Shown: in pieces, positions 9,632 through 46,525 of the stretch
How positions within the stretch are numbered: position 1 is the first letter of the stretch
How the letters are laid out: every line of letters begins with the position of its first letter
DNA from: Deltaproteobacteria bacterium
GTDB lineage: Bacteria > Myxococcota_A > UBA9042 > PHBI01
DNA: 64,000 nt
Assembly (NCBI GenBank): GCA_006226565.1
Contig: SBGO01000716.1
Coordinates: 307-64,306, forward strand
Direction of reading: 5' to 3'
Program-made: the position numbers and the translations under genes
Notes under the pieces: model-generated
Told to the model about the DNA's origin: nothing
The model's database searches: none
The model's input: the letters and a program-made list of their open reading frames with translations, nothing else

Positions 9632-9670
9632 GAAACGCCCAGGCATTGCTGCATGGGCGTCTCGTGGCTC
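9632..9670 (+). repeat. 39-bp direct repeat, copy 1 (gaaacgcccaggcattgctgcAtgggcgtctcgtggctc); contains a hairpin cgcccaggc-attgct-gcctgggcg
   Basis: Identical to 14814..14852 apart from one base (A versus C). It lies between convergent gene ends. Confidence 0.8.
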
Positions 9671-9959: not shown

Positions 9960-10916
9960 TCACTCCACGAGCTGACGAATCCAAGCGCGAATGGTCGCGG
10001 TGGCCTCCTCCAACGGGATGCGCGGTCCCCAGAACATCGGGGCGATCTTCGCGTAGGCGCGCATCACGTGCTCGCGCTTGTCGTCGTCCTCGAGGACGAG
10101 TGACGGGGCGTCCGCCCTCGGAAGCGCTGCGATGTCGCCTTGCGCCAGCATGTCCTCGGCGAGTGCGAGCGCGCTTGTCTCGATCGCCGGAAGCTCGCCG
10201 ACGGCACGCACGATGCGGGCGGCGTCCTCGTAGTGGCGGACGAAGCTGTCGGCCTCGATCTGATCGCGCCCGTAGCGGCGCGCCATCGCGTCGAGCTTCT
10301 CGAGCAGCGTGACCAGCGGATGCACGCACCGGACGGCGCTCGGGCGATTGTCGAGATAGTCGACCAGCATCCCCTGGCGCTCGAGGTAGACGTGCACGAA
10401 GGACGTGATCGCCATCTCGACGAACGGCACGACCCGCGCACGCCCGACCTCGAAGCGCACGAACGGGCTCATCGCGCTTGGCAGGTCGCTGACGAGCGCG
10501 CCCGGGTAGTGGCCGAGGTAGTCCGCCGTTCGCGCGTACTTGTCTGGCCGCGCGGCGTCGAGCGACGCAGGCACCCCCGGGATCGCGAACGCATCGGCGA
10601 GGGCGTTGTAGAAGGCGCGGCGCTGGGCGACCCGCCCCTTGTGCGCGCTCGTCCAGCTCGCCACCTCCGGGAGGCTCACGACCGCGCCGCGCTCGATCAT
10701 CAGGTCGAGGTCCTCGGAGAAGCGCTCGATGAGGCCGAAGCCTTTCGAGAGGCTCGTCCCACCCTTGAACCAGACCTCGAGCCCGGTCTGGTGCAGCGCC
10801 CACAGGCAGTGGGTGACCCAGTAGTCCTTCTCGACCAGCGCCGCGTCGATGCCAGTCTCGCGGGCGACGAGCCGTAGCAGCTGTGCGAAGTCGCGGTCGT
10901 CGTGGACGAAGGTCAC
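9960..10916 (-). CDS. AbiEii/AbiGii-family nucleotidyltransferase toxin (DUF1814)
   Basis: VTHCLWALHQ...WFKGGTSLSKGFGLIERFSEDLDLM matches the AbiEii NTase core. The GTG start at 10916 overlaps the antitoxin stop as GTGA. The longer 490-aa ORF is an upstream extension. Confidence 0.8.
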   Translation of the reverse strand: MTFVHDDRDFAQLLRLVARETGIDAALVEKDYWVTHCLWALHQTGLEVWFKGGTSLSKGFGLIERFSEDLDLMIERGAVVSLPEVASWTSAHKGRVAQRRAFYNALADAFAIPGVPASLDAARPDKYARTADYLGHYPGALVSDLPSAMSPFVRFEVGRARVVPFVEMAITSFVHVYLERQGMLVDYLDNRPSAVRCVHPLVTLLEKLDAMARRYGRDQIEADSFVRHYEDAARIVRAVGELPAIETSALALAEDMLAQGDIAALPRADAPSLVLEDDDKREHVMRAYAKIAPMFWGPRIPLEEATATIRAWIRQLVE

Positions 10917-11497
10917 GCGGCAGCGGCCTCTGCGAGGGACGCCTCGACGAGCGCCCGCGTCTCCTTCGTGCCGTAGGCTTCGGCCATCGCCAAGAGCCGG
11001 CCTCGGTCCCAGCGTCCGGCGCGCAGCGTATCGACCAACGCCGCCCGCAGATCGCTCAGGGCAGCGCCTGCTGCCTCGTGATGCTGCAGCAGGTCGATGA
11101 CGAACCACTCCGGCTTGGGCGCGTCCGGGAAGTAGACGCGGCGCAGGATGAAGCGTCGCCCGTCGAGCGTGAACTCCCCCGTCCGCTTGGTGTTGTAGAC
11201 GAGCGTCGCGGCGAAGACGGCCGTCGAGCCGAGTCCGAGCGCGTTCCAGCGCGGTGGGCCGGTGACGAGGAACGGCGCGTCGTCGAGGAATGCCCGCAGC
11301 AGCTCCTCGTCCGCGGCGGGGGCCGGACCGAAACGGCTGGGCGTCGGCGCGTAATAGAGCCCATGCGCCGCCATGCGCAGCTTGCCCTCGTGGACCAGCC
11401 GCCGGGCGAGCCGCGTGGGGTTCTCTCCCCATCGTCGCAGGTCGCGGGTTCGGTACGCCCGTCCAGGGGCGAGGTTGGGTTCGATGGCAGCGCTCAC
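10913..11497 (-). CDS. AbiEi-family antitoxin / transcriptional regulator (type IV TA)
   Basis: About 190 aa with an N-terminal wHTH-like region. It sits immediately upstream of, and is translationally coupled to, the AbiEii gene. Confidence 0.7.
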   Translation of the reverse strand: MSAAIEPNLAPGRAYRTRDLRRWGENPTRLARRLVHEGKLRMAAHGLYYAPTPSRFGPAPAADEELLRAFLDDAPFLVTGPPRWNALGLGSTAVFAATLVYNTKRTGEFTLDGRRFILRRVYFPDAPKPEWFVIDLLQHHEAAGAALSDLRAALVDTLRAGRWDRGRLLAMAEAYGTKETRALVEASLAEAAAA

Positions 11498-13078: not shown

Positions 13079-14455
13079 GTGACCACCGATCCTACCGGAT
13101 CCTCCGACGGCGATGCGGTGGCTGTGACCGTCGCGGCTGACGGTCGGCCGGTGGTGCGGTGCGCGATCTACACGCGGCAGTCCGTGGCCCATGGCAACGA
13201 GGACCTCACGTCCTGCGACGTTCAGCGGGAGCGGTGCGGCTACTACGTCAGCGCCATGAAGTACGAGGGCTGGGTCCTGCTCCCCGAGCGCTTCGATGAC
13301 CTCGGCGTCTCGGGCGCTACCCTCGAGCGGCCGGCCCTCGAACGCCTGCGTTCCCTCTGTGTACAAGGGCGGCTCGATGTCGTCGTCGTCACGCGGCTCG
13401 ACCGCCTGACGAGGCGCATGGCGGACTGGGCCCGCCTCTCGGACTGGTTCAAGCGGGCCGGTGTCGACCTGGTGATTGTCGACGGGAACGCGGGCGCCAG
13501 CGGACCGCTCGCCAGCCTCGTCAACAACGTCGTCGCCAGCTTCGCCGAGTTCGAGCGCGAGCTCGTCAGCGAGCGCCAACGCGACGCACGAGGGCGGGCC
13601 CGCGCCCGCGGTCTCCGCACGGCCGGTCGCGTCCCCCTCGGCTACGCGTCCGATCCCAACACGAAGCAGCTCGTCATCAACGAGCGCGAAGCACCCATCG
13701 TCCGCGAGTTCTTTGAGCGCTCCGCTGCTGGCGAGTCGGGCGCCCAGATCGCCGCGTGGGCGAACGCCGAAGGTCACCGGACCAAGGTCCACGCAGGCAA
13801 GGGCGGCGTCCTGTGGACGGGCAGGGCGGTCCTCCAGATCCTGCGAAACCCGCTCTACCTTGGCCGCCGTTCCCACCAGGCGGCCACCGTCAAGGGCGTC
13901 CATGACGCCATCGTCGACGCCAAGCTCGCTGAGCGAGCCCTTGACGCCATCGACGCCCGCCGGACACGCAGCCCGAGCTCGCGCGGGCGGGCGCCGAACC
14001 TTGACAACGACCCCTGGATGCTTCGCGGCATCCTCCGCTGCGGCGGCTGCGGCCGCCTCATGACGACCAGCGCGTCGGCCAGGGTCACCCTCGCGAACGC
14101 CGACGACGTCCCGCGCTACTACCGCTGTCGCGGTGAAGTCGGCCGGCCGGCCTGTCGTCCCGCCGTCCAGGTCGCCGCTCATCGTGTCGAAGGCCAGGTC
14201 ATCAGCCGGCTGTGCCTTCCCCAGTCCGTGTGGACCGACAACCCGAGGGCGCGCGCCTTCCTCCGGCTGCTCGCCCCCGAGTGGCCGCGGCTCGACACCG
14301 CCACGCGGAACCGCCTGGTCCGCCGCCTCCTGTGGACCATCACCTTGCACCCGCACAGGCGCTTTGCGAGCCTGACCGTGGACGAGCTCGGCGCCGACGC
14401 CCTCATCGAGGAGAACCCCGGCCTCGCCGCCGGGTTCCCACCTCGAGGCGTCTGA
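13079..14455 (+). CDS. Large serine recombinase (resolvase catalytic domain, recombinase domain and zinc-ribbon domain)
   Basis: Catalytic motif VRCAIYTRQS with DVQRERC, and a C-terminal Cys cluster LRCGGCGRL...YRCRGEVGRPAC. Confidence 0.85.
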   Translation: MTTDPTGSSDGDAVAVTVAADGRPVVRCAIYTRQSVAHGNEDLTSCDVQRERCGYYVSAMKYEGWVLLPERFDDLGVSGATLERPALERLRSLCVQGRLDVVVVTRLDRLTRRMADWARLSDWFKRAGVDLVIVDGNAGASGPLASLVNNVVASFAEFERELVSERQRDARGRARARGLRTAGRVPLGYASDPNTKQLVINEREAPIVREFFERSAAGESGAQIAAWANAEGHRTKVHAGKGGVLWTGRAVLQILRNPLYLGRRSHQAATVKGVHDAIVDAKLAERALDAIDARRTRSPSSRGRAPNLDNDPWMLRGILRCGGCGRLMTTSASARVTLANADDVPRYYRCRGEVGRPACRPAVQVAAHRVEGQVISRLCLPQSVWTDNPRARAFLRLLAPEWPRLDTATRNRLVRRLLWTITLHPHRRFASLTVDELGADALIEENPGLAAGFPPRGV

Positions 14456-14813
14456 GCCCGCGTCTCGGGACCGCACTGGTCGGTCTCAGAGCAGAGGTGG
14501 ATACTATTCGCGCCCCGGGAGCCCAAGACGGACCGCGACGGCGAGACGAAGAAAGCGAGGGCCGGATGTCCCGTTCTGAGCTTGCTAACCTTGTGCTCTG
14601 GGGCTGCTAAACGCCTCAGAGGCGTCTCCAAGCGTCTCTCGGGCCACGAGGGACCAGAGAACCCGGTCGACCGACCGGTCAGCGTCGGTCCGGTGCTCTG
14701 ACGCTCGGACCACCAAGATCCCACGCCGCGCCCAGCCACCAGCGCAACCTCGCGAACGAACACCAGAAACACGAAACCCCTCGCCAGCGACGCTGACGAG
14801 GGGCGTGTAAAGC

Positions 14814-14852
14814 GAAACGCCCAGGCATTGCTGCCTGGGCGTCTCGTGGCTC
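14814..14852 (+). repeat. 39-bp direct repeat, copy 2 (gaaacgcccaggcattgctgcCtgggcgtctcgtggctc)
   Basis: 38 of 39 identities with 9632..9670, same orientation. Confidence 0.8.
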
Positions 14853-15085: not shown

Positions 15086-18000
15086 ATGGTGTCGCGACCG
15101 ACCCTTGTCATCCAGACCGTCTACTTTCACCCGAGTGATCGCCCGCTGGCTCAGGACCTCGGGGGGCTGCTTTACGAGCACCTGACGCGACCACGTGCCG
15201 ATCGCCTGGCGTTCGGCGGTGGAATCCCGGTCCTCATCGCGACTGATACAACTCACGTCGACACGGACGTCGCCTCGCACCTGCTCATCGTGCCGGTCTT
15301 GGGCGCCAGTTCCTTCAGAGACGAGGACTGCCGGCAGGTCGCGAAAGCCAGCGTCCAGACCTGGCACCAGCACCTCGGTCCTGGCCACGTCGTCCCGGTA
15401 TTCGCCTCGGCGAACTGGCGCAGCGAGGAGTCCGAATTCCCCGGGAAGTCCGTGTTGACGCGCCTCTACTCCGATCAGGACGGGACCTGGACAAACACCC
15501 TGATCGAGGTCGTCCTCGCCGCCTGCCGCTTGCTCGCCGGCCCCGCGCTGTCGCTGAGGCTCTTCATCTCTCACGCGAAGCGGGACCTGGCGGGCACAGG
15601 TGACGTCGCGGCGTTGATTCGGGACTTCGCGAAGTCGGCGACGACGGGGCTTGCCTTCTTCGATACGACGGACCTCGAACCCGGTCACGACCTGGCCCAT
15701 CAGCTTGCGACCGCCACGCAATCGGGGGTCTTCGTAGCCATTCACAGCGACACGTACGCGGCCCGCTCGTGGTGCCAGCGCGAGCTCCAGTGGGCCAAGG
15801 AGAACGCGCTCCCAACCCTCACTGTCGAGGTTATGAAGGCTGGTGAGCCGCGCAGCTATCCGTATAGCGGCAACGGACCCACGCTCACCTGGAGGGACAG
15901 TCCGCCAACGGTCGTCCTCCAAGCATTCATCGAGTGGCTCAAAGCGGCGCACTTCAAGCAAGAGGCCGAGCGCATGGCGCACGACCTTCCCCAGCACGTC
16001 GTGCTCACGCGTCCGCCGGAGTTGTTCGATCTCGCGTTCGGGAAACTCCGATCCAAGGGGCCCCGCGTCGTCCTGCACCCCGATCCTGAGCTATCCGCCA
16101 ATGAGCGGCAGGTCCTGCGTGAGGCCCGACCACGCCTTCGCCTCGTGACACCTCGCACCCTGTTTCGCCGCTTGACCCCTAGCGACACCGTGGAGCCGCA
16201 GAAGCTCCCCCTCTACAGGAGGCAGATCGCCCTCTCGTTGTCCGACAGCCCCGCGGCCAACGGCGACGCCGGCTTCACGTCCGACCACATCGATGACGCG
16301 ATCACGTACCTGGCCCGAAGCATAGTCGCTGCAGGCGGTGCAATTGCGTACGGCGGCGACTTCCGCAGTAGCGGCTTCGACGAGCTGCTTGCCGAGCTTG
16401 TCGTCGCCTATAATGAGTCTGGCGTCGACCGTGCTGACTACCTTCATAGCTACCTCGCCGCGCTGATACCCTCCGACAAGATTCCCGAAGACCTTGCGCT
16501 CACCGACTGCTCTCTGAATTGGACGCCGAGATTCGCGAAGCTGGCGCGCCTGAGCTGGCCCGACGAGAAGCCGGGCGCCCATCGCAGCGCGCTCTACTTC
16601 TCCGACATGCGCCGCGTTATGGGCGAGGCCATCTTTGCCCGCGTCGCACTGGCCGGGCAGGACCGTCCGCGGAGTTCAAGGGAACCCGGCTACGGCGGAC
16701 CATTCCCGGGAGTGGTCGAGGAGGCGTGGCGAGCCCTGGAACAGCGGAAGCCGCTCTACGTGGTGGGGGGCTTCGGTGGCGCAGCCGCGCTCGTGGCCGA
16801 GCTGCTGACCTCGGACGAAACCCCACTGCTCATGCGGCGCGAGACCTTTGGGGGCGAAGAGTACTCGGAGTTCCAGGAGCGCTGTGACCTGGTTGTGGCG
16901 GATCCGGACACTGTGAGGCTCGGGCTCCCGCCGGACATGGCCGCACTGTCGGCAGCCGTGCGCGCGTTCGGCAAGGGGCACCTCGCGTCGGACGCCGCGT
17001 CGCTCGCTTGGAACGGCCTGACCGTCGTCGAAAACGAGGAGCTGTTTCGGACCCGCGATCCAGTGGCGATCACCCAGCTCGTCATGAAGGGGCTGCTCGC
17101 CTGCGTCGCGAAGGAAGATGCGGACAAGCTCAAGATCGAGCTAGTGTGTGGCAGCATCACCCAGGCAGAAGAGGCCGACGCCATCGCTATCGCGGCGTTC
17201 GACGACGTTCGCATCGGCGGAGCGGGCGCCTCCCTCGACGCGATGCTCTCCTACCTTGTCACCAGCGCCGTCGCGCAACGCGAGCAAATCGTCGACATCG
17301 AGAGCCCTGACATCGACGCCGAGTGGCTCGTCATCCCCGATCTTGGCAGCGTCGGGGCCGGCGATCTCTCCCCCATCCCTGAGGCCATCGAACGGGCCGC
17401 AGCTGGCGTTGCGAACATCGCGACCCGCCACCAGTTTCGTCGCATCGCAGTCGTCGCCTTCGGCGGGACCGTAGTCGACCTGAGCATTGCGGCGGAGCGC
17501 ATGATCCGCGGCTTTCGCGACCTCCACACCTCGACGGTCATCCAATGGTTCGAGCTCGATCCAGGCCGATTCGATGACCTCAGACAGATGTTGGAGAGCC
17601 AGGACAACGTCGCGCTGAGCACGCGTGTCCTGCCATCGCCACCGCTCGAAGAGACGGCCACGTCGCGTGATCGCGATCTGGTCGTGACGGTGCGTTACGA
17701 GGGCGGACACCTCCATACGACGCTGCTCCCACCTGCCGGAACGGCCGCCGCGGTCGCGTGCGTCCGGCCGCTGGCGATGGACGCCTTCGCCGACCTCGCG
17801 AAGTCCGACGCGCCCCGTGCGCCAACGCTCGGCCAGCTTGATGCAATCGGTGAGAAGCTCGCTGAAGCGCTCTTCGACGAGGCCGGGCACGACCTGTTCG
17901 GACGCGGCAGGCTGGACCGCGTCCTCGTTCAGCACGACCTCGACAGCGCGCCCCTTCCATTCGAGGCGCTCCGTGTTGCAGACCATCGCTTCGCCCTCGA

Positions 18001-18697
18001 GAAGGGCCTCGTGCGCCGCCCGGCACTAACGGGGTTGAGTCTTGGGGACATCACGCGGCTCCCGCAGCACAGCGGGAGCCTCAATGTTCTCCTCGTCGTG
18101 AACCCAACGGAGGACCTCGCCGCGACTGAAGTTGAGGGCGACGCCGTGAAGCGTGCCCTTCTGGCGATGGGCGAGAGCATCGTGAGGGTCACCGAGCTGC
18201 GCGGACCGGAGGCCACGAAGGAACGCGTATTGGCCGCGCTGACGGAGCCGACTCTCGACGTCCTCCACTACAGCGGCCACGCTTTCTACGACGGCCCAGG
18301 GCCGGACGGCAGCGGGCTCTGGTGCTCGAGCCCGACAGGCCCCACGAAGCTCCTACTGGTGGATATCGCCCAGGAGCGAATCACGCCACGCATCACGTTC
18401 TTCAATGGCTGCCAGTCCGCGCGCCTCAGAAATCGAACCGCTGCCGAATCCGCGCGGGCCTTCGCCGAGTTCTTCCTCCGAAGTGGCGTCGAAGCCTACA
18501 TCGGCACCACGTGGCCCGTCGCTGACGACGCCGCAGCCTCGTTCGCAACGTCGGTGTACGCCGAACTTGCGGGAGGCGCGACGCTCGACGCTGCGGTACG
18601 CTCCGCCCGTCAGCAACTAGCTGTGAACGGCGAGCCCGACTGGGCCAACTACGTTCTCTATGGAGATGGGAGCTTTCGCCTGGTGACGTCGCGGTGA
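15086..18697 (+). CDS. Multidomain TIR plus LOG/SLOG-like plus CHAT (caspase-like protease) protein; candidate Thoeris-type sensor-effector
   Basis: (a) TIR: LFISHAKRDLAGTGDVAALIRDF...SWCQRELQWA, preceded by a second TIR-like segment VIQTVYFHPSD. (b) LOG/SLOG Rossmann glycine motifs: IAYGGDFRSSGFDELLAELVVAY and LYVVGGFGGAAALVAELL, resembling LOG VFGGG...G and PGGxGTxEEL. (c) CHAT His-Cys dyad: LDVLHYSGHAFYD and ITFFNGCQSARL. Start chosen at ATG 15086, which has a GGGAG ribosome-binding site, rather than GTG 15041. Confidence 0.75.
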   Translation: MVSRPTLVIQTVYFHPSDRPLAQDLGGLLYEHLTRPRADRLAFGGGIPVLIATDTTHVDTDVASHLLIVPVLGASSFRDEDCRQVAKASVQTWHQHLGPGHVVPVFASANWRSEESEFPGKSVLTRLYSDQDGTWTNTLIEVVLAACRLLAGPALSLRLFISHAKRDLAGTGDVAALIRDFAKSATTGLAFFDTTDLEPGHDLAHQLATATQSGVFVAIHSDTYAARSWCQRELQWAKENALPTLTVEVMKAGEPRSYPYSGNGPTLTWRDSPPTVVLQAFIEWLKAAHFKQEAERMAHDLPQHVVLTRPPELFDLAFGKLRSKGPRVVLHPDPELSANERQVLREARPRLRLVTPRTLFRRLTPSDTVEPQKLPLYRRQIALSLSDSPAANGDAGFTSDHIDDAITYLARSIVAAGGAIAYGGDFRSSGFDELLAELVVAYNESGVDRADYLHSYLAALIPSDKIPEDLALTDCSLNWTPRFAKLARLSWPDEKPGAHRSALYFSDMRRVMGEAIFARVALAGQDRPRSSREPGYGGPFPGVVEEAWRALEQRKPLYVVGGFGGAAALVAELLTSDETPLLMRRETFGGEEYSEFQERCDLVVADPDTVRLGLPPDMAALSAAVRAFGKGHLASDAASLAWNGLTVVENEELFRTRDPVAITQLVMKGLLACVAKEDADKLKIELVCGSITQAEEADAIAIAAFDDVRIGGAGASLDAMLSYLVTSAVAQREQIVDIESPDIDAEWLVIPDLGSVGAGDLSPIPEAIERAAAGVANIATRHQFRRIAVVAFGGTVVDLSIAAERMIRGFRDLHTSTVIQWFELDPGRFDDLRQMLESQDNVALSTRVLPSPPLEETATSRDRDLVVTVRYEGGHLHTTLLPPAGTAAAVACVRPLAMDAFADLAKSDAPRAPTLGQLDAIGEKLAEALFDEAGHDLFGRGRLDRVLVQHDLDSAPLPFEALRVADHRFALEKGLVRRPALTGLSLGDITRLPQHSGSLNVLLVVNPTEDLAATEVEGDAVKRALLAMGESIVRVTELRGPEATKERVLAALTEPTLDVLHYSGHAFYDGPGPDGSGLWCSSPTGPTKLLLVDIAQERITPRITFFNGCQSARLRNRTAAESARAFAEFFLRSGVEAYIGTTWPVADDAAASFATSVYAELAGGATLDAAVRSARQQLAVNGEPDWANYVLYGDGSFRLVTSR

Positions 18698-18837
18698 TGT
18701 CTCGCCAAGGCGTCGGGACTCCGCGACAGGTGGAACCTCGCCGGCTGGCGCGTTGACATGCGTACAACAGCGCTGCAATCTCAGCCTGATGTCGCGCTCC
18801 GGATGCGCGATAGCTCGCGCACGGAAGGGGAAGTACA

Positions 18838-19425
18838 ATGACCACGCGCCACAAGGTGTTCATCAGCTACCATCACGCTCTGGACCAGCAGTACAAGAAC
18901 GACTTGGTCCGTTACTACGCCGACCGGGTGGACGGATTCGTCGATCGGTCCGTCGGGATCGGGGATATCGACGATTCCGTGTCCACAGAGCGCATCGCGC
19001 AACTGATTCGCGAGAAACACCTGAGGGACTCGACGGTGACCGTTGTGCTGATCGGGGCTGGAACGTGGAGACGCAAGCACGTCGATTGGGAGATTTACAG
19101 TAGCCTCCGCGCTACAAGTGCCAGTCCTCGAAGTGGTCTTCTCGGCATCTTGCTCCCTACGTATCAGATTCCATGGGGGGCGACTGGAACCCAACAGTGG
19201 ACCCAGCCTGCTACCGCCTACTACTGGCCGAACAACATCCCTCCGCGTCTCTGGGACAATGTGGCGACGGGCTTCGCAAAGGTGCGGCCGTGGCCTTCGT
19301 CCGGCCAGCAGCTGCAGGAGTGGATTCACGAGGCGTACCTGCGACGTGACGCCAACCCGGCGCCAACACTGGCCCGTGACCGATTCCGAAACAACCGGCC
19401 CGATGTGCAGAGCGGTTGGCAGTAG
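18838..19425 (+). CDS. thsB: ThsB-like TIR-domain protein (DUF1863-type), paralog 1
   Basis: HKVFISYHHALDQQYKND...STVTVVLIGAGTWRRKHVDWEI closely matches Bacillus cereus ThsB (RVFFSFHYQD...TSVTCVLIGSQTFNRRWVRYEI). Confidence 0.75.
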   Translation: MTTRHKVFISYHHALDQQYKNDLVRYYADRVDGFVDRSVGIGDIDDSVSTERIAQLIREKHLRDSTVTVVLIGAGTWRRKHVDWEIYSSLRATSASPRSGLLGILLPTYQIPWGATGTQQWTQPATAYYWPNNIPPRLWDNVATGFAKVRPWPSSGQQLQEWIHEAYLRRDANPAPTLARDRFRNNRPDVQSGWQ

Positions 19426-19448
19426 CCTCGACAAGTCGCAGGGCTGTC

Positions 19449-19991
19449 ATGACCTACCGGCACAAGGTCTTCATCAGCTACCACCACCAGAACGACGAGG
19501 CCTATCGCCACGAGTTCGAGGAGCGATTCGCCTACGAGGGCGGTGTCATTGTCCCGAAGGCGGTCTACGACGGCCAGATAGCCTCAGGATTGAGACCCGA
19601 GACGATTCGGCGAACGATTCGGGAGCGCAACCTGCGCGACAGCACAGTGACCGTCGTCTTGGTCGGTTCGGAGACTTGGAAGCGCAAGCACGTCGACTGG
19701 GAGATCGCGTCCAGTCTACGCAACACGCCGTATAAGAAGGCTTCCGGCCTCCTCGGAATCCTGCTCCCAAGCTACCCAGGGTCCGCCACTGACTACGACC
19801 CGCATACGATTCCGCCACGCCTCTGGGACAACGTCCTATGCGAATACGCGGAGGTTCACGACTGGACGAAGGGCCGATCAATCATGACGCACCTGATTCA
19901 CGCGGCGTTCCTTCGACGCAAACGCCTATTGCCGGCGAAACCCCGGCCCCGGTTCAAAATCAATCGACACGGCGAGCGATGGTGGCCGTGA
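19449..19991 (+). CDS. thsB: ThsB-like TIR-domain protein, paralog 2
   Basis: MTYRHKVFISYHHQNDEAYRHEF...STVTVVLVGSETWKRKHVDWEI. The start is taken at ATG 19449. Confidence 0.75.
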   Translation: MTYRHKVFISYHHQNDEAYRHEFEERFAYEGGVIVPKAVYDGQIASGLRPETIRRTIRERNLRDSTVTVVLVGSETWKRKHVDWEIASSLRNTPYKKASGLLGILLPSYPGSATDYDPHTIPPRLWDNVLCEYAEVHDWTKGRSIMTHLIHAAFLRRKRLLPAKPRPRFKINRHGERWWP

Positions 19992-20164: not shown

Positions 20165-20779
20165 TCAATCACTTGGCTGGTAGAGATTGCAGGCGATATG
20201 CAGGATCTCGACGGTCGCGCCCGACGAGTGTCGGTGCCGGCCAAGGAATGACCACGGTAGGCTGTGGTCCTTCGTCTCTTCTACATCGTGGCAGCCAGCG
20301 GGATCGGTGAAGTGCTGCCGTGTGTCCTTCACCCGCCCTGCGACGTCCGGCTTCTGGCAGAACCCGATGCAAAGGGCCCGCTTCTCGGCACCAGAGCAGT
20401 AGCCGAGGACCTGGGTGGTGCCGTCGCAGTGATACTTGGGCCCGCGGTCCAGCTTGCATTCGCCGAGCATCCTGAAGCGGCCGGCCACGAAGTGGCTGAT
20501 GACCAAGTCGACGTGGCCGTTGACGTGGGGTTCGGCCGTCGTCGGCACACCACCCTGGCTGAGGAGATCGGCGAGGTTGGTGGAGAGCTCCACCTCGCCG
20601 GCCTTCGCCAGCAGCTTTCGACGGTCCTCCAGCTTCTGAAGGCAGTGCCGAACCGCGAGCTCGGCGGCTTCGCAGAAGGCGTCCTCGGTCTGCGCGCACG
20701 CCACGCGGTGGAAGTCGGGCATGAAGGTTTTCACCAGGCCGATGTAGTCCTCGGCCGTCATCCCATCGGGCAGCGTCAT
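20165..20779 (-). CDS. PD-(D/E)xK-fold nuclease-like protein; last gene of the DISARM-like operon, in the position usually held by a PLD nuclease
   Basis: Putative motif GHVDLVISHF...RMLGECKL (D...ExK). Its ATG at 20779 shares one base with the TAA stop of the upstream giant helicase gene. Confidence 0.45.
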   Translation of the reverse strand: MTLPDGMTAEDYIGLVKTFMPDFHRVACAQTEDAFCEAAELAVRHCLQKLEDRRKLLAKAGEVELSTNLADLLSQGGVPTTAEPHVNGHVDLVISHFVAGRFRMLGECKLDRGPKYHCDGTTQVLGYCSGAEKRALCIGFCQKPDVAGRVKDTRQHFTDPAGCHDVEETKDHSLPWSFLGRHRHSSGATVEILHIACNLYQPSD

Positions 20780-23700
20780 TAGCGTCTCCCCTCGCCTCGG
20801 AGCCATTGAACTCCAATCGTTCGCGCTCCGTCGCGCCATCCTTCACCAGCGAGGCCCTCGGCGCCTCCGAGACGATCGAGGGCCTGCTCCCAGGACATGG
20901 GGGCCGGTGGAGTCCGCTTCAGATCCAGGAACACGCGCTTGATGGTGCCAGTCTGGGCCAGTCGTTCGATGGCCAGGAGCGCGTCTCCCTCGTCGGCGTC
21001 AAACTGACCCGCCGCTGCGATGGCGTCGCCCAACGTCAGCGGCTGACCCTCGCTGTCATCGAGGCGTTCGAGAAGCAATCTTGCGATGGCAACAGCCTTC
21101 TCGTTTCGGGTCTGGCGCTTCACCTCGTCCAGCGGCCCGCCGCCGTGTCGGACCCACTCCATCGTCCGCTCCGGCGTTCGCAGATCCCGCGCCGTCAGCT
21201 CCACCACGCGCCACGCGACGCCGCCCTCGCGCAGTGCCCTGCGGATGGCGCGATCCCGCCGCAGGCGGCTGCCGGTATGGAACGCGGCGCCGTCCACATA
21301 GACGAGTACGGTGGTGCCGGTCACGCGGAAGTCGGCCTGGCTTATGGCCGGGCCGTCGAGCTCGGGGCCCACGGGGACCTGCTTCTCGACATTGATGCCG
21401 TGCCGCTCGAACAGGCGCAGGAACTTCAGCTCCAGCGGGGAGCCGACCCCAGCGTCGTAGGCCTCGAGCCATGGCTTGGGGTCGTCGCTGTCGCCCAGCT
21501 CGCCACGAAGCACCTCGGGCGCCGCCAGCGCGAGGCCTTCGAGATCCGGCATGATGTGCGGCCACGACAAGTGCTCGTGGTGGCGCTGGTTGGCGTAGGA
21601 CTTCAGGCAGCGGTAGCAGGCGCTTTCGCACTTCGGGTGGTCGAGATGTTCTATGGTTCGGCGCGCCACCAGATGCAGCTCGTCGACACAGCGATCTAGG
21701 AAGCCGCTGCCGCCAACGGCCGCGTCGATCAGGGTCAGGGCGCCCAGCTTGCGTACACCGTCCTTGCGGCGTTCCTCCCACAGGGGTTCGAGCTCGAACT
21801 CGATCTCCGGCCCGTCGAGCATGTAGAGCTGACGCAGCCCCGTCCGCAGGGCATAGCCCAGCGAGTAGCCCCACCGCTTGTAGTCGGCCTCGTCGTAGTC
21901 GCGCGGCAGGACAACGGTCACGCGGAGAGTCGAGGCGGGCGTAGCGGTCGTGATCGCTGCCGGGATCGGAGGCTGGCCGCTGCGCTGGCAGCCCGAAGCA
22001 TGGCCGAAGGCGTCGGGTCCGCTGGACTTGCGTGCCTTCCTGCGCCCCTTCTTGCCGCTGTCGTCGTCGGGCACCGAGAGCGACCTGCCGCAGGCAGGAC
22101 ACAGGTAGAAGCCGCGCCCGGCGTCGTGCAGCATCGGCTTCCCATTGCGCAGGTCGGCCTCGCTTGGGGGCTTCCACTCGTTCACCCACCGTACGGTCTC
22201 CTCGGCCCGCAGCTCGACGTGCCAGCCGGTGGCCAACCGCCTCCGGGCGACTACACGACCGTCGCGCTGTGGGTGGCAGGTCACCAGCGAGCCTATCGAG
22301 AACCGGTCCTCCTCTTGGAGTACCGGTGTGTCGTCTCGAATTGCCAGGAACCCGCCGTACTCGTGGCCCGGGTAGCCGTGGCCGCCGCCCACCGTGTCGT
22401 CCGAGCCACAGCGTGGGCACGCCGGTGTCTGAGCGTCGTAGCGAAGGTCGCACCCCTTGCAACGCACGTAGATCCAGTCGGGGTCGGTGGACTTCGGGTT
22501 CCAAGGCGAGGCGAGATCCAGACCCACGACGCGCCAGCGGTGGCCACGGGCGTGGACCGGTGCCTCCGGCTGGTACTGCGCGATGCCGAAGCGTCGCGCC
22601 ACCGTGATGGGGTCCTCTTCGTGCTCGTCGCCCCACAGTCGCAACGTGCAGGGCGCTGAAGGGAACTCGTAGCCGGGGAGGATGCCGAACTCGGCGAACC
22701 GGCGCATGGGGTGCCCGCTGCCCCGGTCGTCCGCATCGCCGTCGAAGCGGTCGTCGCGCAAGCCCAGGATCTTCCGCTTCAGGTCCTGAGCGTGCATGGC
22801 CGAGCGGTCGCCCTTGCCCAGTTCGTTCCAGCGGTCGATTGTCTCCTGCAGCTTGAGAATCTGCCGCCGCACGCGGTCGAAGAGGTCCCGGATACGGTCC
22901 GGCAGCCCCTCGAGTACCTGGGCAAGGGCGTCGGGCTCGCCGAGCCCGGCCGGGTCGAGCACGTCGTCGCCCCACGCGTCGCGTGCCAGGTTCACAGCGT
23001 GGGGGAACTGCGCCACGATCGCGGCGATGAGCTCGTCCACTTTCGCCTGGTCGACCTCGCCGCGGATGTTGATGTACTCGGCCATCCGCCCAGCGAGGCC
23101 GGGCTCGGCGGCGCCGAACGCGAGCGCGTGCAGGTGCCGCAGCACCACGTCTCGATTGCCCAGTCCGACGCCGGGTGCTGGCACCTCGCCGGCAATCATC
23201 TCGGCCGGCTTGTCGAAGAAGTACCCATCGTGCGGTGTGCTTCGTGCGTAGCCGAGCACGATGCCAACCCGTGACCGCCGCCCAGCACGGCCCCCACGCT
23301 GCGCATAGTTGTCGGGACGGGGCGGGATGTTGCGCATGACCACTGCGTCGAGGCCCCCCACGTCGATCCCCATCTCCAGGGTGGGCGAGCAGGCCAGAAC
23401 GTTCGTCGCGGCGCGCCGGCTCGTGCCGCTCCACCCCGGCGGCGGCCGGAACCCGGGCGGTGGAGCCTTGAAGTCCTCCTCGAGCTCGATGCGGTCTTCA
23501 CCGGTGATCTGCGCCGTGTGCTCGCCCGCGGAGAGCGGCATCAGGTCGCTCCTCTGGATGCGCTGGACATAGCGATTGCGCTCGATCTCCTCCCTCGGCC
23601 ACTGCTCCAACACGCCGTGGCAGCTCGGGCACGGGCTGCCTGCGGCCGCCCATGGAATACGCACGTTGCAGACGGAGCACCGCATCCGCTCCTCGGGCTT

Positions 23701-26448
23701 GACCAGCTCCAGGCTCACGACGTCGGCGCTGACCTGGAGCAGCCGGCGGCCCTTGCGGTAGCCGTGAAGGGGTTGAGCCACGATGAGCCGCGGGCCACTG
23801 GCCAGCAGATCCAGAAGCTCAACCATCCGCTCGTCATCGGGCTCGGCTCCGCCCATCCGCTTGAGCAGATGCCGCAGCTTCGCCTCGAGGCTCGGGCTGC
23901 GCCCCCCCGCCCTGGGCCTACGCCAGGCGTTGCGCTTGGAGATGCCCTCGGGCACCTCCGAATCGTCGAGCCACCCGAGCGGGGTTCCCTGGCTGTCGCA
24001 CGCGTAGCCCGCGGGGGTCTTGATGCGCCGCTCCCAGTCGGCTGGCCCCCGGAACTCTTCGGGGCAGCTCGGGCTACCCGGATGGTAGCAGAGCATCGGC
24101 CGCGAGAGCGCGGTTCGCCGGCGCATCTCGTCCAGCAGGCAGCGTGAGACGTAGGCGAGCTGACCGGTTGTCAGACCCAGTTTCCCGGCGAGGCCCGCGC
24201 TGTTCTTCGCGATGTGGGCGTCCAGATGCTCGTAGCGCACTCCGACGAGACCCAGGTTGAGCAGCGAGGCGCGGTAGCCCGCGCTGACCGACAGGTCGTC
24301 GAGCAGCGGCGCCTCCTCCCACGCCCGCGCGCGGTCCTGCACGTGCCGCGGCAGGAAGTCGGCGTCGTCGAAGCCCCTGGTGTGGGGGTTGTCTGCTCGC
24401 TCGACTGCCATCGCGACGAGCTTCGTGAGGACCTCGGCGATGGTGGCCCGCTGGCCGGGGGCCTCTTCCAGCACTCGGATGAGCCGACGGCGCATACGGT
24501 CGTAGCGGCCAGCGTAGGTAATGAAGCGAGCCTGGTGTGCGGCGTCCTGGCGGCTGTCCGAGAAGATCAGCAACCGCTCCTTGCCGTCGTGGTCGGCCCG
24601 CTCCGCGTTCTGCACCGCCAGGCCCTCGCAGAGCCCCTCCGCGACCACACGCACGGCTGCCGAGGTGCCCAGCGATACCGGCGTGAGCACGTCATGCGCC
24701 CCGGCGGTCCCGCCGCACACGAGGCAGCGGTTGCGCGCCGGCGCGAGCACCGCCCGCATCGGATACAGAGACTCGTCGACCGAGAACGAGCAGGTGGCGG
24801 GGTCGAAGCTGCCCTCGAGCACGGGCCGTTTCCGCATCTGCTGCTCGACGCCAACCAGCCCCTCGTCGTCGCCCGTCTCGAAGCGCTCGCGGTCGTAGAG
24901 CAGCCACTCGCCGTCGTTGGACCGCGAGGCGTTCGGTCGAAGTGCCTCGCCCTCGGGCCCCGCGTCACCCTCCGCGAACCGTAGGGTGTCGGCGCCGCAC
25001 GAGCGGCAAAGGTAGAGCGGCGCGGCGCTTGCCCCGCACTCGCATTGCTCCTCTCCCATCGGGTACAGGCGCCCGCAGCTCGGATCGACGCAACGCGTGA
25101 AACGCCAGCCGCCGCGAATGAAGCGATGTGCCCGCAGTCGCAACGTGCCGGCGGTCCCGTCCGGCATTGCGGCACCCACGACGAGCGCCGCTTCGATCTC
25201 GCCGCGCAAGCGGTCATGTTCGCTGTCCGCCCGCTCGGGCACGCGCTGGCGCACCTGCTCCACGATCTGAGACACCGACATGGGCCGGCGGGCGAGCAGG
25301 TCGTTCAGCGTCCACAGGATTCCGGCCTGGCGCGCGAGCTCGTCGACCGGCCGCGCGACATCCCCGCCGGCCAGCGCAGCGAGGGCCGCGTGGACAGCCT
25401 CGGCGTCCCCGATGGCGGGCGGAGCGACCTCCGCTGGCGCGCTCGGCCACCGCGCCTCGGCCGGCACCTCGAGGTCGCGAAGGCTCTCGCCGAGCACCTT
25501 GAAGCGCCGCCCGTCGACGCCGGTGAGCTTCATCAGGAACTCGCGGACCGCCTCGTCTCGAAGCGCCCGTACCTCGTCGGGGGCCCGCCCTGTCTCATCC
25601 ACGCTCTTGATCGTGGCCGAGGTCGCCACTGGCAGGGTCTCCGGGAACCGCTGCGCGTCGGCCCGATCATCGGCCTTCCAGTCCTGTCGAGCGTGGCGCA
25701 GGTGGGCACGCAAGCGCCGGAAGAGCAGCGCGATGTTGGCCCCCAGGCTACCGCGATAGGTGTGGACCTCGTCGAGCACCACGAAGCGGCAGCGATGGTT
25801 CGCGAAGAGCGCGTCCCGATCCGCCGGTCGCACGAGCAGGTACTCGAGCATCATGTAGTTGGTCAGCAGGATGTGGGGCGGGTGCTCACGGAGCTGGCGG
25901 CGCTCGTCCTCCTTGGTCGAGCGGTCGTAGCGCGCCACCTTGACGTGGGTGTGCCCCGACGCCTGCAGGTACTGTCGGATGCGCTCCTCTTGGTCGTTGG
26001 CGAGGGCGTTCATCGGGTAGACCAGCAGCGCCGTCAGGCCCGCGTGCCGGAAGCGCACTGAGTCCTCGATTGCATTCTGGATGACCGGCAGCAGGAAGCA
26101 CTCGGTCTTGCCCGAGCCGGTGCCGGTGGTGACGACGAGGGGACCGGGCTCGTCGCCCAGCAGATGGGCGATGGCGTCGCTCTGGTGAAGGTAGGCGGTC
26201 AGGGAGCCGCTGCGCTGCTCCATCACTTTCGCGAGGGCGGCGTCGAGGCCGAGCTCACGCCAGGGCCGACCGCTCTTGAACGGACGGTGGGCCTGGAAGA
26301 ACGGTTCCTGCGCCAGGAAGCCGGCCTCGGTCAGCGCGGCCTCGAGGGCGGCCCGAAGCTGTGGGTCGCGGGCCTGGAACTCGGTCGAGAGGTAGCTCTT
26401 GTACTCGCCGATGACCTGATCGACCACGGTGATGGGGTTCAGGGGCAT
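20779..26448 (-). CDS. Giant DEXH-box helicase with Zn-ribbon/DUF1998-like elements and a C-terminal DUF559-like endonuclease-fold domain; candidate fused DrmA-DrmB (alternatively DruE-like)
   Basis: Walker A VVTTGTGSGKTECF, motif II VVLDEVHTY, motif VI NYAQRGGRAGRR. Several Cys4 clusters (CVDPSCG...CECG, RCSVCNV...CPSCHG, CKGCDLRYDAQTPACPRCG). C-terminus LVYVDGAAFHTGSRLRRDRAIRRALREGGVAWRVV is DUF559-like. The 1889-aa length matches DrmA plus DrmB or DruE. Confidence 0.7.
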   Translation of the reverse strand: MPLNPITVVDQVIGEYKSYLSTEFQARDPQLRAALEAALTEAGFLAQEPFFQAHRPFKSGRPWRELGLDAALAKVMEQRSGSLTAYLHQSDAIAHLLGDEPGPLVVTTGTGSGKTECFLLPVIQNAIEDSVRFRHAGLTALLVYPMNALANDQEERIRQYLQASGHTHVKVARYDRSTKEDERRQLREHPPHILLTNYMMLEYLLVRPADRDALFANHRCRFVVLDEVHTYRGSLGANIALLFRRLRAHLRHARQDWKADDRADAQRFPETLPVATSATIKSVDETGRAPDEVRALRDEAVREFLMKLTGVDGRRFKVLGESLRDLEVPAEARWPSAPAEVAPPAIGDAEAVHAALAALAGGDVARPVDELARQAGILWTLNDLLARRPMSVSQIVEQVRQRVPERADSEHDRLRGEIEAALVVGAAMPDGTAGTLRLRAHRFIRGGWRFTRCVDPSCGRLYPMGEEQCECGASAAPLYLCRSCGADTLRFAEGDAGPEGEALRPNASRSNDGEWLLYDRERFETGDDEGLVGVEQQMRKRPVLEGSFDPATCSFSVDESLYPMRAVLAPARNRCLVCGGTAGAHDVLTPVSLGTSAAVRVVAEGLCEGLAVQNAERADHDGKERLLIFSDSRQDAAHQARFITYAGRYDRMRRRLIRVLEEAPGQRATIAEVLTKLVAMAVERADNPHTRGFDDADFLPRHVQDRARAWEEAPLLDDLSVSAGYRASLLNLGLVGVRYEHLDAHIAKNSAGLAGKLGLTTGQLAYVSRCLLDEMRRRTALSRPMLCYHPGSPSCPEEFRGPADWERRIKTPAGYACDSQGTPLGWLDDSEVPEGISKRNAWRRPRAGGRSPSLEAKLRHLLKRMGGAEPDDERMVELLDLLASGPRLIVAQPLHGYRKGRRLLQVSADVVSLELVKPEERMRCSVCNVRIPWAAAGSPCPSCHGVLEQWPREEIERNRYVQRIQRSDLMPLSAGEHTAQITGEDRIELEEDFKAPPPGFRPPPGWSGTSRRAATNVLACSPTLEMGIDVGGLDAVVMRNIPPRPDNYAQRGGRAGRRSRVGIVLGYARSTPHDGYFFDKPAEMIAGEVPAPGVGLGNRDVVLRHLHALAFGAAEPGLAGRMAEYINIRGEVDQAKVDELIAAIVAQFPHAVNLARDAWGDDVLDPAGLGEPDALAQVLEGLPDRIRDLFDRVRRQILKLQETIDRWNELGKGDRSAMHAQDLKRKILGLRDDRFDGDADDRGSGHPMRRFAEFGILPGYEFPSAPCTLRLWGDEHEEDPITVARRFGIAQYQPEAPVHARGHRWRVVGLDLASPWNPKSTDPDWIYVRCKGCDLRYDAQTPACPRCGSDDTVGGGHGYPGHEYGGFLAIRDDTPVLQEEDRFSIGSLVTCHPQRDGRVVARRRLATGWHVELRAEETVRWVNEWKPPSEADLRNGKPMLHDAGRGFYLCPACGRSLSVPDDDSGKKGRRKARKSSGPDAFGHASGCQRSGQPPIPAAITTATPASTLRVTVVLPRDYDEADYKRWGYSLGYALRTGLRQLYMLDGPEIEFELEPLWEERRKDGVRKLGALTLIDAAVGGSGFLDRCVDELHLVARRTIEHLDHPKCESACYRCLKSYANQRHHEHLSWPHIMPDLEGLALAAPEVLRGELGDSDDPKPWLEAYDAGVGSPLELKFLRLFERHGINVEKQVPVGPELDGPAISQADFRVTGTTVLVYVDGAAFHTGSRLRRDRAIRRALREGGVAWRVVELTARDLRTPERTMEWVRHGGGPLDEVKRQTRNEKAVAIARLLLERLDDSEGQPLTLGDAIAAAGQFDADEGDALLAIERLAQTGTIKRVFLDLKRTPPAPMSWEQALDRLGGAEGLAGEGWRDGARTIGVQWLRGEGRR

Positions 26449-26482: not shown

Positions 26483-26591
26483 TTCTATCGGACACGATCT
26501 CCGGGTGGCCGATAGAAAACCATTGGGCGTTCAGCGGGTTGTGCCCCCGGCGGGGCCTCCTATCGGCCATCGTCGTCCTCGTGGCCGATAG
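26483..26591. promoter_or_regulatory. Two related palindromes upstream of the giant helicase gene: IR1 ttctatcgg-N17-ccgatagaa (26483..26517) and IR2 ctatcggcca-N12-tggccgatag (26560..26591)
   Basis: They share the core CTATCGG(N)CA...TG(G)CCGATAG. IR1 lies 35 to 69 bp upstream of the start at 26448. IR2 begins at the stop codon of the Schlafen-like gene. Confidence 0.4.
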
Positions 26592-28251: not shown

Positions 28252-28270
28252 CGTTCACCCGGTTCGCACC

Positions 28271-29962: not shown

Positions 29963-29995
29963 TCAGCGGCTCCTCTCCATCTTGGCGTGTTCGGC

Positions 29996-32900: not shown

Positions 32901-34473
32901 AGGAAGCGCACGAACGGGTGCGGCGTGTAGTAGCTGCCGCTTGCCTTGCGCCCCAGGCCCACCCGCAGGAAGAAGCGCCCGGCCGGAATCTCCTCGATGA
33001 ACTGGACCTTGGTCTTGCTGCCCGCGGCCGCCTTGCCGCGGCGCTTGGGGGCCTCGTCCTCTTCGCCGTCGTCGGCGTCGTCCGTGTCGCTGTCTTCGTC
33101 GTCGTCCAGGTCGGTTGGCGCGAGGTCGGTGCGGTAGGGCAACCCCTGCGACACCGGCACGACCACCTCGAGTTTGGCCCGTCGCAGGCGGCACATGGCC
33201 TCGGTGGTAATGCCCGGCTCGAGCTCCAGCAGGGCCTCGTAGACGCGGCCAAGATCCTCGACGTCGAGGGCGCCGTAGTGCACGCGCTCGCGTTCTGTCC
33301 TGCCGTCGCCGGGTGTCCACAAGAGCGCGTCGAGCAGGCGGGCCACGCCGCGCTCGCCCCAGGTCAGCCGGTCGAGCAGCGGGGTGGCGTCGCGGCCGAA
33401 GAGCATGCCGCCCAGGGGCCGGATCTCGAGCTCGCTGGAGCTCATGCCATTGGCGAACATCCGCCAGAGCGCGCGCAGGCCGGACTCGAGGAAACCGCCA
33501 CTGTCGGCACCGTCGTCGAGCACCCGCCGCACCAGGCGCGCGAGCGCCGTGTTGGGCGAGTAGGTGTTTCGCCACAGGCTGGTGGCCGCGAAGCTGAAGG
33601 CGCGGGCGGGGTCGGCGGACGACTCCAGCTTGAAGACGAAGAGCAGCCGGTAGACGAGGATCAGGCCCTCGCGCCACAGCGCCCGCGCCAGCTCGCCCGC
33701 GTCGGTCCACTCGGCGCGGACGGCGGCGTTGTCGGGGTGATCCAGCAGCTCCTGCAAGAAGCCCTCGATGGCGCGGCGGGCCTGCAGCCGCAGCTTCTTG
33801 GTGACGGTGCTCTGAGCGAGCCGCGCGGCCTCGGCCAGATCGGGCACCACCGCGACGCCGTCGGGCGAGGCCAGCGCGAGCAGCAGCCGATACGAGTCGG
33901 GGACGCCGCGCGCCGCGCGCCAGCCGCCTGACCGGTCGAGGCGCACGGCGATGTGGCTGTCGGGCCGTGCCGGATCGCAGAGCAGCAGGCGCAGCTCTTC
34001 ACCGTCGGTGAGCAGGCCTACCCGCTCGCCGCTGGCCAGCAGCACGCGCTGGGCCACGCGGCTCGGGCTGAAGCGGTAGGCCCGGCCGCGACGGCTGGGC
34101 GCGTCGAGGTCGGTGCCGAGGCCCACCGACCAGGCGCGCAGCTTGCGCCCGTCCTCCGATGTAAAGAGCCAGCCACCGTCCTCGGGGCCCTCGCGGGTGA
34201 TGACCTCGGCCTGCGACTCGAAGGCGGCGTAGCCCAGGCGCTCGGCGAGGGGCTCGAGGACGTGGCTCGCCACGCGGCGGTCGCCGCCCTGCTCGCCGAG
34301 GGCCCGCAGTTTGCGACGGTAGACGTCCCAGCGGTCCTGGAGCGCGCGCCCCTCGTCGCCCGTGGTCTTCGGCAGCAGCTTGCGTTTGGTCAGCTCGGCC
34401 TCGAGCTGGAACTTGACGAACGGCTCGGGCAGCGCCGGCCCGAAGAAGGTGCAGTCGCGGAGATCGAAGGCCA

Positions 34474-34474
<1 letters not shown>
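29996..34474 (-). CDS. Large N6-adenine DNA methyltransferase (gamma-class, Eco57I/DrmMI/PglX-like), about 1490 aa
   Basis: Motif I VLDPAMGSGHFLVEA and motif IV VLGNPPW, with YYTPHPFVRFLV before motif I. Start assigned to ATG 34474 (MAFDLRDC), which overlaps the SNF2 stop as TGATG. The ORF-track start at 34690 is an Arg/Pro-rich extension. Confidence 0.75.
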
Positions 34475-37887
<3,413 letters not shown>

Positions 37888-38154: not shown

Positions 38155-39763
<1,609 letters not shown>

Positions 39764-39774
<11 letters not shown>

Positions 39775-41371: not shown

Positions 41372-41423
41372 GGGCAGCGGCGATGAGCTACGGCAGAGGC
41401 ATCGACGTCCGGGGAGGCGAGCG

Positions 41424-46510: not shown

Positions 46511-46525
46511 ATCGTGGGTTGAAGC

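Follow-up and report, generated by a model that had tools for sequence, protein, structure and literature searches.

The described system closest to the locus analysed here is type IX Thoeris of Bacillus cereus VD021, in which ThsB is paired with ThsJ, an effector annotated as 'TIR and SLOG' (Yirmiya et al., bioRxiv 10.64898/2025.12.03.692087, December 2025, Table S2). According to that preprint, type IX Thoeris protects B. subtilis, and its ThsB makes the cyclic ADP-ribose (cADPR) isomer 3'cADPR, which alone is not toxic; its tables, as far as they are accessible, carry no protease, peptidase or CHAT label. In type IV Thoeris, N7-cADPR made by a TIR protein activates a caspase-like protease (10.1101/2024.10.24.620036). 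Here we describe a cluster of three genes (positions 15086-19991) in a 64,000-nucleotide (nt) stretch of contig SBGO01000716.1 from a Deltaproteobacteria bacterium, the whole of which we call the window, where two ThsB-like genes follow a gene for a single large protein with TIR, SLOG, Macro-like and CHAT domains. We read the locus as a system of the Thoeris type in which a Macro-like domain and a CHAT protease extend an effector resembling that of type IX, a TIR-SLOG2 (ThsJ-like) protein, and we give this reading a probability of about 0.55. The first-pass annotation of this DNA, made from the sequence alone, knew of no description of the architecture; ThsB with a 'TIR and SLOG' protein turned out to have been reported as type IX, whereas for the CHAT-fused form we found no description. 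Nor did we find a paper that joins 'Thoeris' and 'CHAT domain' or that names LD_cluster2/PF18163, and an earlier computational mention of TIR-SLOG-CHAT is possible.

All three open reading frames (ORFs) lie on the same strand (Table 1), as the first-pass annotation had it, and every motif that it quoted is present in the translations. The large protein consists, in order, of an N-terminal alpha/beta domain, a TIR domain, a SLOG cluster2 (SLOG2) domain, a Macro-like domain, a beta/helical linker and a CHAT domain. Its AlphaFold2 (AF2) model, built from 50 homologues (pLDDT 87.4, pTM 0.77), has these parts at residues 1-150, 154-265 (TIR), 376-673 (SLOG2), 678-845 (a second alpha/beta domain), 861-936 (linker) and 942-1199 (CHAT), in the numbering of a 1199-residue chain whose first residue is at nt 15098; Pfam positions refer to the 1218-residue translation from a GTG at 15041, an alternative to the ATG at 15086 with which the N-termini of homologues line up. 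Conservation was counted in an alignment of 44 CHAT-fused (long) and 6 short homologues. The TIR domain, earlier called canonical, matches TIR_2 and, in the PDB, the TIR profiles of TcpB, AbTIR, Roq1 and Cat1, and its putative catalytic Glu is kept in 43 of the 44 long and all 6 short forms. The 'second TIR-like segment' that had been placed in front of it was not confirmed: residues 1-150 form a confidently modelled alpha/beta domain, and its comparison with TIR, SLOG and ThsB profiles (hhalign) gave nothing significant, so that kinship with TIR is not shown. This domain is common to the short TIR-SLOG2 and the CHAT-fused proteins, and tblastn alignments to the short forms begin at residue 12-23 of the large protein. 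The middle region is a SLOG domain, as proposed, and the AF2 model gives it a Rossmann-like alpha/beta fold, but it belongs to LD_cluster2 (PF18163; 126 bits against a gathering cut-off of 25.3) rather than to the STALD type of ThsA. Its motifs AYGGDxR, PGxxEE and GGFGG are invariant across all long and short homologues. The SLOG clusters were reportedly defined by Burroughs et al. in 2015 (Nucleic Acids Research).

Beyond the TIR-SLOG module the protein continues for about 530 amino acids (aa), which hold the Macro-like domain, the linker and the CHAT protease. The intact His/Cys dyad ascribed to the CHAT domain was borne out: both fold and dyad are those of the CHAT peptidases (PF12770, clan CD), the two residues are kept in 44 of 44 CHAT-fused homologues, and the Foldseek matches of the domain include DdvA, Csx29, separase and SAVED-CHAT. 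Between SLOG and CHAT lies a Macro fold that the first-pass annotation had missed; a Foldseek search of the PDB returned dozens of Macro domains besides CHAT proteases. The family consensus of this domain, ELVxGSIT...DAIAxAxF...GGAGAALD...VTFGG, parallels the ADP-ribose loops of Macro domains, with the GGAGA and FGG loops conserved and the canonical Asn of NAAN replaced; the Pfam Macro model does not match it, and its relatives match Peptidase_M17_N, weakly. PADLOC v2 gives nothing specific to the large protein, its SAVED_CHAT model covering the CHAT part only (residues 1059-1206) and finding no SAVED counterpart. No NCBIfam model passes its cut-off for the proteins of the cluster, and no Thoeris model of PADLOC or NCBIfam passes threshold on the window proteins.

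The two small genes encode ThsB_TIR proteins (PF08937) that are 49% identical to each other and both retain Glu85 in the motif HVDWEI, which gives the locus two ThsB-type TIR genes with an intact Glu beside an effector gene, as in Thoeris generally. Their family had been recognised correctly, but not their closeness to known ThsB: ThsB2 is only 28% identical to ThsB of B. cereus MSX-D12 (E 8e-8), and 48% identical to the ThsB of a validated type VI Thoeris (E 2e-41). Among PADLOC v2 models, ThsB1 and PDC-M50B match the small proteins weakly (about 3e-9 for the product of thsB1). The ThsB subfamily found here, marked by RKHVDWEI, GLLGILLP and IPPRL, is very large and spread across many phyla. 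In the type IX preprint (10.64898/2025.12.03.692087), ThsB proteins of this subfamily are included in TIR cluster 2741407742, whose partners are DUF6650 (type VI, 2'cADPR) and a CMP hydrolase (type VIII).

The pairing of this ThsB subfamily with TIR-SLOG2 proteins recurs. From the ThsB side we surveyed 80 metagenome loci, 44 of which had flanks of 2 kb or more and were counted as informative. Of the 80, 19 encode a protein homologous to residues ~12-675 of the large protein, as do 15 of the 44; a protein of about 160 aa is found in 24 of the informative loci, and neither of the two in 8. The short TIR-SLOG2 forms comprise the N-terminal domain, TIR and SLOG2 in 570-730 aa, without CHAT, and are strong members of LD_cluster2 (E 6.5e-84 and 1e-82), with STALD as a secondary, sub-threshold match. 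Their genes are mostly on the same strand as the ThsB gene, which is present in one to four copies, and 3-100 bp from it; the order of the window (TIR-SLOG, ThsB, ThsB) is repeated in six loci (L060, L075, L076, L080, L082 and L089, in our locus numbering). Annotated examples of ThsB with TIR-SLOG2 occur on a Priestia megaterium plasmid, on Klebsiella pneumoniae pKpnB199, where TIR and SLOG2 are split, and in Paenibacillus maysiensis. Plasmid homologues of the VD021 ThsB, sought as a way to ThsJ of type IX, were found to adjoin Macro or SIR2 effectors; the 'hypothetical' protein beside the TIR-SLOG2 gene of Priestia is not a ThsB of the VD021 type.

The CHAT-fused form is itself widespread. 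A scan of genome contigs found nothing with a single-sequence query and found the family with an alignment-based one, and an exhaustive HMMER search returned 456 representatives of 50%-identity clusters at E <= 1e-30. Among the first 110 of these representatives, at least 62 clusters run from TIR to CHAT in one stretch; some family members have additional Metallophos, STAND, MinD or caspase domains. The full-length architecture is found in Planctomycetota, Verrucomicrobiota, Myxococcota and other metagenome-assembled genomes (MAGs). We surveyed 8 kb around the full-length genes of 29 genome loci with a panel of 20 TIR sequences, together with five metagenome contexts. Separate TIR genes accompany the CHAT-fused gene in 5 of the 29 genome loci and in four of the five metagenome contexts (none in L139), or in about 10 of 35 CHAT-fused loci altogether. 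In L006 and L020, small TIR genes confirmed by Pfam immediately precede the CHAT-fused gene on its own strand. The ThsB subfamily of the window occurs near a full-length gene in one of the 29 loci, L017; its close relative L053, a truncated locus, is not counted among them. L140 carries a ThsB 50% identical to ThsB1, and L146 a ThsB_TIR gene with Nmad2 and MazG_C, an accessory set also seen in several short-form loci. In all of these (L017/L053, L140 and L146) the ThsB gene is within about 3 kb of the CHAT-fused gene.

Table 1. Features of the three-gene cluster, with positions in the 64,000-nt window.
Feature	Positions	Strand	Basis and landmarks
Large multidomain gene, 1203 aa	15086-18697	+	ORF, Pfam, AF2
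N-terminal alpha/beta domain, ~150 aa	15086-15547	+	AF2, pLDDT above 90
TIR domain	15557-15892	+	Pfam TIR_2, residues 175-254, E 3.3e-9; putative catalytic Glu in WCQRELQW, codon 15782-15784
SLOG cluster2 domain (LD_cluster2, PF18163)	16223-17116	+	Pfam residues 393-667, E 2.4e-36
Macro-fold domain	17129-17632	+	~residues 682-849 of 1203 aa; Foldseek
Linker, three-stranded beta element and helices	17678-17905	+	AF2; joins Macro-like domain to CHAT
CHAT (caspase-like) protease domain	17921-18697	+	Pfam residues 936-1209, E 3.9e-30; predicted catalytic His in HYSGHA, codon 18278-18280, and Cys in NGC, codon 18410-18412
Spacer between large gene and thsB1	18698-18837	+	140 bp
thsB1, 195 aa	18838-19425	+	ThsB_TIR PF08937, E 3.7e-18; Glu85 codon 19090-19092
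thsB2, 180 aa	19449-19991	+	ThsB_TIR PF08937, E 9.4e-19; Glu85 codon 19701-19703

A gene of the Peptidase_C14 (caspase) type lies near the CHAT-fused gene in seven loci, directly upstream of it in four (L019:6813-7628, L024:5941-7962, L026:1414-3501 and L032:4045-6078) and farther away in L009, L012 and L030; one more is found in L140 (13181-14038). Pfam confirmed the caspase domain in L019, L024 and L030 and gave no match in L012, the genes of L009, L026 and L032 being outside that scan. The loci with an upstream caspase gene are from Planctomycetota (Novipirellula, Rhodopirellula), and one family member (P0087) has a caspase domain fused to it. These upstream genes hint at a cascade from CHAT to caspase; no caspase gene like those of the sister loci was found in the window.

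Some neighbourhoods hold further associations. In L017 (8677-15083) and L053, the CHAT-fused gene is followed by an RPE65-like gene (carotenoid oxygenase family) and then, convergently, by an operon for a protein kinase (1040 aa), ThsB and a 145-aa TIR protein. In L140 (2034-6677, minus strand), a split relative of the TIR-SLOG2 module lies divergently from the CHAT-fused gene; it comprises genes for Metallophos-TIR_2 (742 aa), for LD_cluster2 standing alone (296 aa) and for two ThsB/TIR proteins. On the ThsB side, the commonest neighbour of the subfamily is the helical protein of ~160-220 aa directly downstream, seen in the 24 informative loci mentioned above (L057-L135; for example L073:699-1187 and L062:7858-8358) and in some cases bearing an N-terminal transmembrane helix. 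It could be an undescribed Thoeris effector; it is not recognisable as DUF6650, the ThsG of type VI, and has no Pfam or PADLOC match. MazG_C and Nmad2 genes accompany ThsB genes in L076, L080, L082, L089, L091, L096 and L118, as well as in L146 (8456-10541), and all of these loci have a short-form TIR-SLOG2 gene except L118 and L146, the latter with the CHAT-fused form. Their presence suggests an accessory layer that modifies or degrades nucleotides.

The cluster of the window, which is GC-rich (61-76%), sits in a defence island. Upstream are an AbiEii-like gene (9960-11432, minus strand) and a gene for a large serine recombinase (13079-14455, plus strand). A 39-nt direct repeat (9632-9670 and 14814-14852, 38 of 39 positions identical), each copy of which is itself a hairpin, brackets about 5.2 kb with the AbiEii-like gene, unannotated genes and the serine recombinase; the stretch that it bounds may be a small integrated element, or the repeat may be a repeated terminator. 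The 630-bp gap before the large gene also contains a strong minus-strand terminator-like hairpin with a 13-bp stem (14776-14804), with no minus-strand gene upstream of it. Downstream, a DEAD/MZB (DUF1998) helicase gene (1889 aa, 20165-26448, minus strand) matches DruE of Druantia in PADLOC (E 2e-114) and is translationally coupled to a gene for a 204-aa protein that has no family match and, by eye, is possibly PD-(D/E)xK-like. Farther on (26560-37887, minus strand) follow genes for an SLFN/AlbA_2-HATPase_c_4 protein, GmrSD_N, a 1564-aa Eco57I/MmeI-like methyltransferase and an SNF2/ResIII helicase, and then (38155-49135, plus strand) a Ser/Thr kinase, a TPR-PEGA protein and three tandem paralogues of 840-1059 aa, each with a P_proprotein domain and, at the C-terminus, an FGE-sulfatase domain.

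Several findings weigh against reading the ThsB pair and the CHAT-fused protein as one Thoeris system, some of them touching the ThsB link and others the receptor. As to the link, no separate TIR gene occurs within 8 kb in 24 of the 29 full-length genome loci, nor do the closest relatives of the large gene, L001 and L139 (52% identity), have one. Because of these 24 loci, the ThsB link of the CHAT-fused family is recurrent and not obligatory; conserved neighbourhood, as the first-pass annotation would have it, is found for the ThsB subfamily with the TIR-SLOG2 module but in part only for the CHAT-fused clade, most members of which have no adjacent ThsB. In L017/L053, L140 and L146, moreover, ThsB is encoded on the other strand, in a group with kinase, sigma factor or Nmad2/MazG_C genes, so co-location in islands could explain part of the association. 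Finally, the spacer before thsB1 contains a TTGACA hexamer (18753-18758), a perfect -35 element, and the ThsB genes may therefore be transcribed separately; the same spacer holds the Shine-Dalgarno sequence GGAAGGGGAAG ahead of the thsB1 ATG, and the promoter and terminator scan of the locus found neither a promoter nor, between the large gene and thsB1, a terminator.

These points lead to the strongest alternative, namely that one gene suffices for defence: the large protein's own TIR would make the nucleotide, SLOG and/or the Macro-like domain would read or process it and CHAT would execute, while the ThsB pair would be an independent or orphan Thoeris remnant that shares the island. That signal-making, sensing and executing domains lie in one chain with conserved catalytic residues agrees with it, as do the hexamer ahead of thsB1, the solitary state of most CHAT-fused genes, for which we found no universally conserved neighbour, and the several unrelated partners of the ThsB subfamily (the ~160-aa protein, DUF6650, the CMP hydrolase). 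However, nothing else was found in the window that could plausibly be the effector of the ThsB pair: a homologue of the ~160-aa partner was not found there, and the next gene is coupled to the DruE-like gene on the other strand. Gene order in the window also matches that of many short-form TIR-SLOG2 and ThsB operons, and in L006 and L020 the CHAT-fused gene has small TIR genes as immediate same-strand neighbours. We consider this alternative possible, if clearly less probable than the Thoeris reading, with which it overlaps since the internal TIR may make ThsB dispensable.

As to the receptor, the assignment of sensing to SLOG2 is open to two objections. Its invariant Glu-Glu pair could serve catalysis rather than sensing, and, by analogy with type IX, where 3'cADPR is made and triggers no toxicity, its role as sensor is only putative. 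It may instead be the Macro-like domain that gates the protease. The Macro-like and CHAT half is also found behind alpha/beta-hydrolase N-termini (L035, L038, L045 and L046) and behind an FHA N-terminus (L051), in genomes that include Bradyrhizobium, Elioraea and Rhodomicrobium, and so behaves as a mobile effector module; since it travels as a unit, the one invariable companion of this CHAT clade is the Macro-like domain. One could thus imagine that the TIR makes an ADP-ribose (ADPR) derivative, that SLOG2 processes it in a LOG-like manner through the invariant Glu-Glu, TIR-SLOG2 being a converter or amplifier and the ThsB products only primers, and that the Macro-like domain receives the result and gates CHAT. 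The LOG-like PGxxEE and GGxGG motifs retained in SLOG2 would fit such a role, and so would the failure of 3'cADPR alone to activate type IX Thoeris, as given in the preprint (10.64898/2025.12.03.692087). Yet the canonical Asn of NAAN is absent, and, as fusions of Macro-CHAT to alpha/beta-hydrolase or FHA without TIR exist, ADP-ribose binding by the Macro-like domain is not assured; the nearest family in sequence, Peptidase_M17_N, has a Macro fold with no known ADPR role, and SLOG domains are proven receptors in ThsA. We regard a Macro-gated protease as doubtful, and less likely than a self-contained single-gene defence. Still more improbable is a primary role outside phage defence, in regulated cell death, kin conflict or development of multicellular or social bacteria (Myxococcota, Planctomycetota), to which the concentration of the family in Planctomycetota, Verrucomicrobiota and Myxococcota MAGs and the caspase, STAND/TPR-TIR and kinase genes at some loci (themes treated in PMC7159879) might point, as the cluster in the window is immediately flanked by a mobile element and genes typical of phage defence, and the ThsB/TIR-SLOG2 core is validated, in the preprint, as anti-phage type IX Thoeris.

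The preferred reading, a Thoeris-type system with a CHAT-extended TIR-SLOG2 effector, builds directly on the domain architecture, the conserved catalytic residues of three TIRs and CHAT, the operonic pairing of TIR-SLOG2 with ThsB and the defence-island setting; what we infer from these runs as follows. Upon phage infection, the two ThsB paralogues, sensing different phage cues, would turn NAD+ into a cyclic-ADPR-type signal, perhaps 2'cADPR, the product of their nearest characterised relative (48% identical). The large protein would bind the signal through its SLOG2 pocket, its Macro-like domain or both and, by analogy with ThsA and SAVED-CHAT, would oligomerise as a result. Oligomerisation would switch on the CHAT His/Cys protease and possibly also the internal TIR, which might act as an NADase or amplify the signal, and cleavage of host or phage proteins would stop the infection (abortive infection); in some sister loci, an adjacent caspase zymogen could perhaps be the target of CHAT. 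Separate TIR genes are missing beside most CHAT-fused homologues, so the TIR within the large protein is probably able to provide the signal; the ThsB genes would then be add-on sensors and not obligatory partners. The first-pass idea of a signal-activated proteolytic variant of Thoeris is supported in part, by the domains, the conserved residues, the recurrent ThsB/TIR-SLOG2 pairing and the lack of another candidate effector in the window.

More tentatively, and with appreciably less confidence than in the Thoeris assignment, TIR-SLOG2 might be a portable cassette that receives or amplifies signals and here directly gates Macro-CHAT, forming a one-polypeptide pathway from TIR to a caspase-family protease with interchangeable ThsB sensors; in sister loci, it might lead on to a TIR-to-CHAT-to-caspase cascade parallel to type IV Thoeris and to the CRISPR SAVED-CHAT to PCaspase route, with a separate evolutionary origin. 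If true, this would be a second, independent bacterial route from TIR signalling to caspase-superfamily proteolysis. The diversity of Thoeris is under active mapping; the fusion of CHAT to TIR-SLOG2 would offer an easily assayed output and a tractable read-out of what the cassette senses or makes. The family is also sizeable, its clusters of roughly 1,200-aa proteins numbering at least 62 at 50% identity, with no model in PADLOC v2 or NCBIfam.

Compared with known systems, the locus shares with type I Thoeris its ThsB_TIR genes, often in several copies, beside a SLOG-bearing effector, the SLOG of ThsA being a receptor of cADPR isomers; it differs in having no SIR2, a SLOG of PF18163 and not STALD (PF18185), an effector with its own TIR and no match to the PADLOC ThsA model. 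Several TIR genes around a SLOG protein are also a feature of type III (P. aeruginosa L0872; van den Berg et al. 2024), but at homologous loci the SLOG domain forms a protein of its own, of 187-194 aa, which belongs to LD_cluster3 (PF18180). Membership in type III was considered and rejected, TIR 4 of L0872 being a stand-alone TIR and the ThcB4 model of NCBIfam reaching 20 bits against a cut-off of 220. Unlike type II, in which ThsB is paired with a Macro-transmembrane effector and His-ADPR, the effector in the window has no transmembrane helices, and its Macro-like domain is divergent and placed between SLOG and CHAT. SAVED-CHAT and Craspase-type systems of type III CRISPR-Cas have in common with it a sensor domain N-terminal to a CHAT His/Cys protease, a SAVED-CHAT structure (8tl0) and Csx29 are among the sequence or fold matches of its CHAT domain, and the sister loci with an adjacent Peptidase_C14 gene resemble the cascade from SAVED-CHAT to PCaspase; the window protein, however, has SLOG2 and Macro-like domains as its putative sensors in place of SAVED or TPR, a TIR would replace Cas10 as the source of the signal, and the neighbouring genes that were examined included no CRISPR genes. 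Type IV Thoeris follows the same logic as we propose here, a nucleotide made by a TIR activating a protease of the caspase superfamily, with death or arrest of the cell as the outcome, but its ThsE is a caspase-like protein with a C-terminal sensor domain, without TIR, SLOG or Macro, whereas the window protease is of the CHAT type and C-terminal to TIR-SLOG2-Macro, and the TIR cluster to which the ThsB proteins of the window belong is associated with 2'cADPR and not with N7-cADPR. Closest is type IX, with small ThsB genes beside a one-chain TIR and SLOG effector (in the window, TIR_2 and LD_cluster2). The short TIR-LD_cluster2 proteins have this same layout, share their N-terminal domain with the window protein and are likened to VD021 ThsJ by annotation, not by sequence. 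From type IX the CHAT-fused clade differs in that adjacency to ThsB is not universal and in that the effector goes beyond TIR and SLOG. ThsB with a 'TIR and SLOG' protein is already known as type IX, and what is new in the window is the Macro-CHAT extension only.

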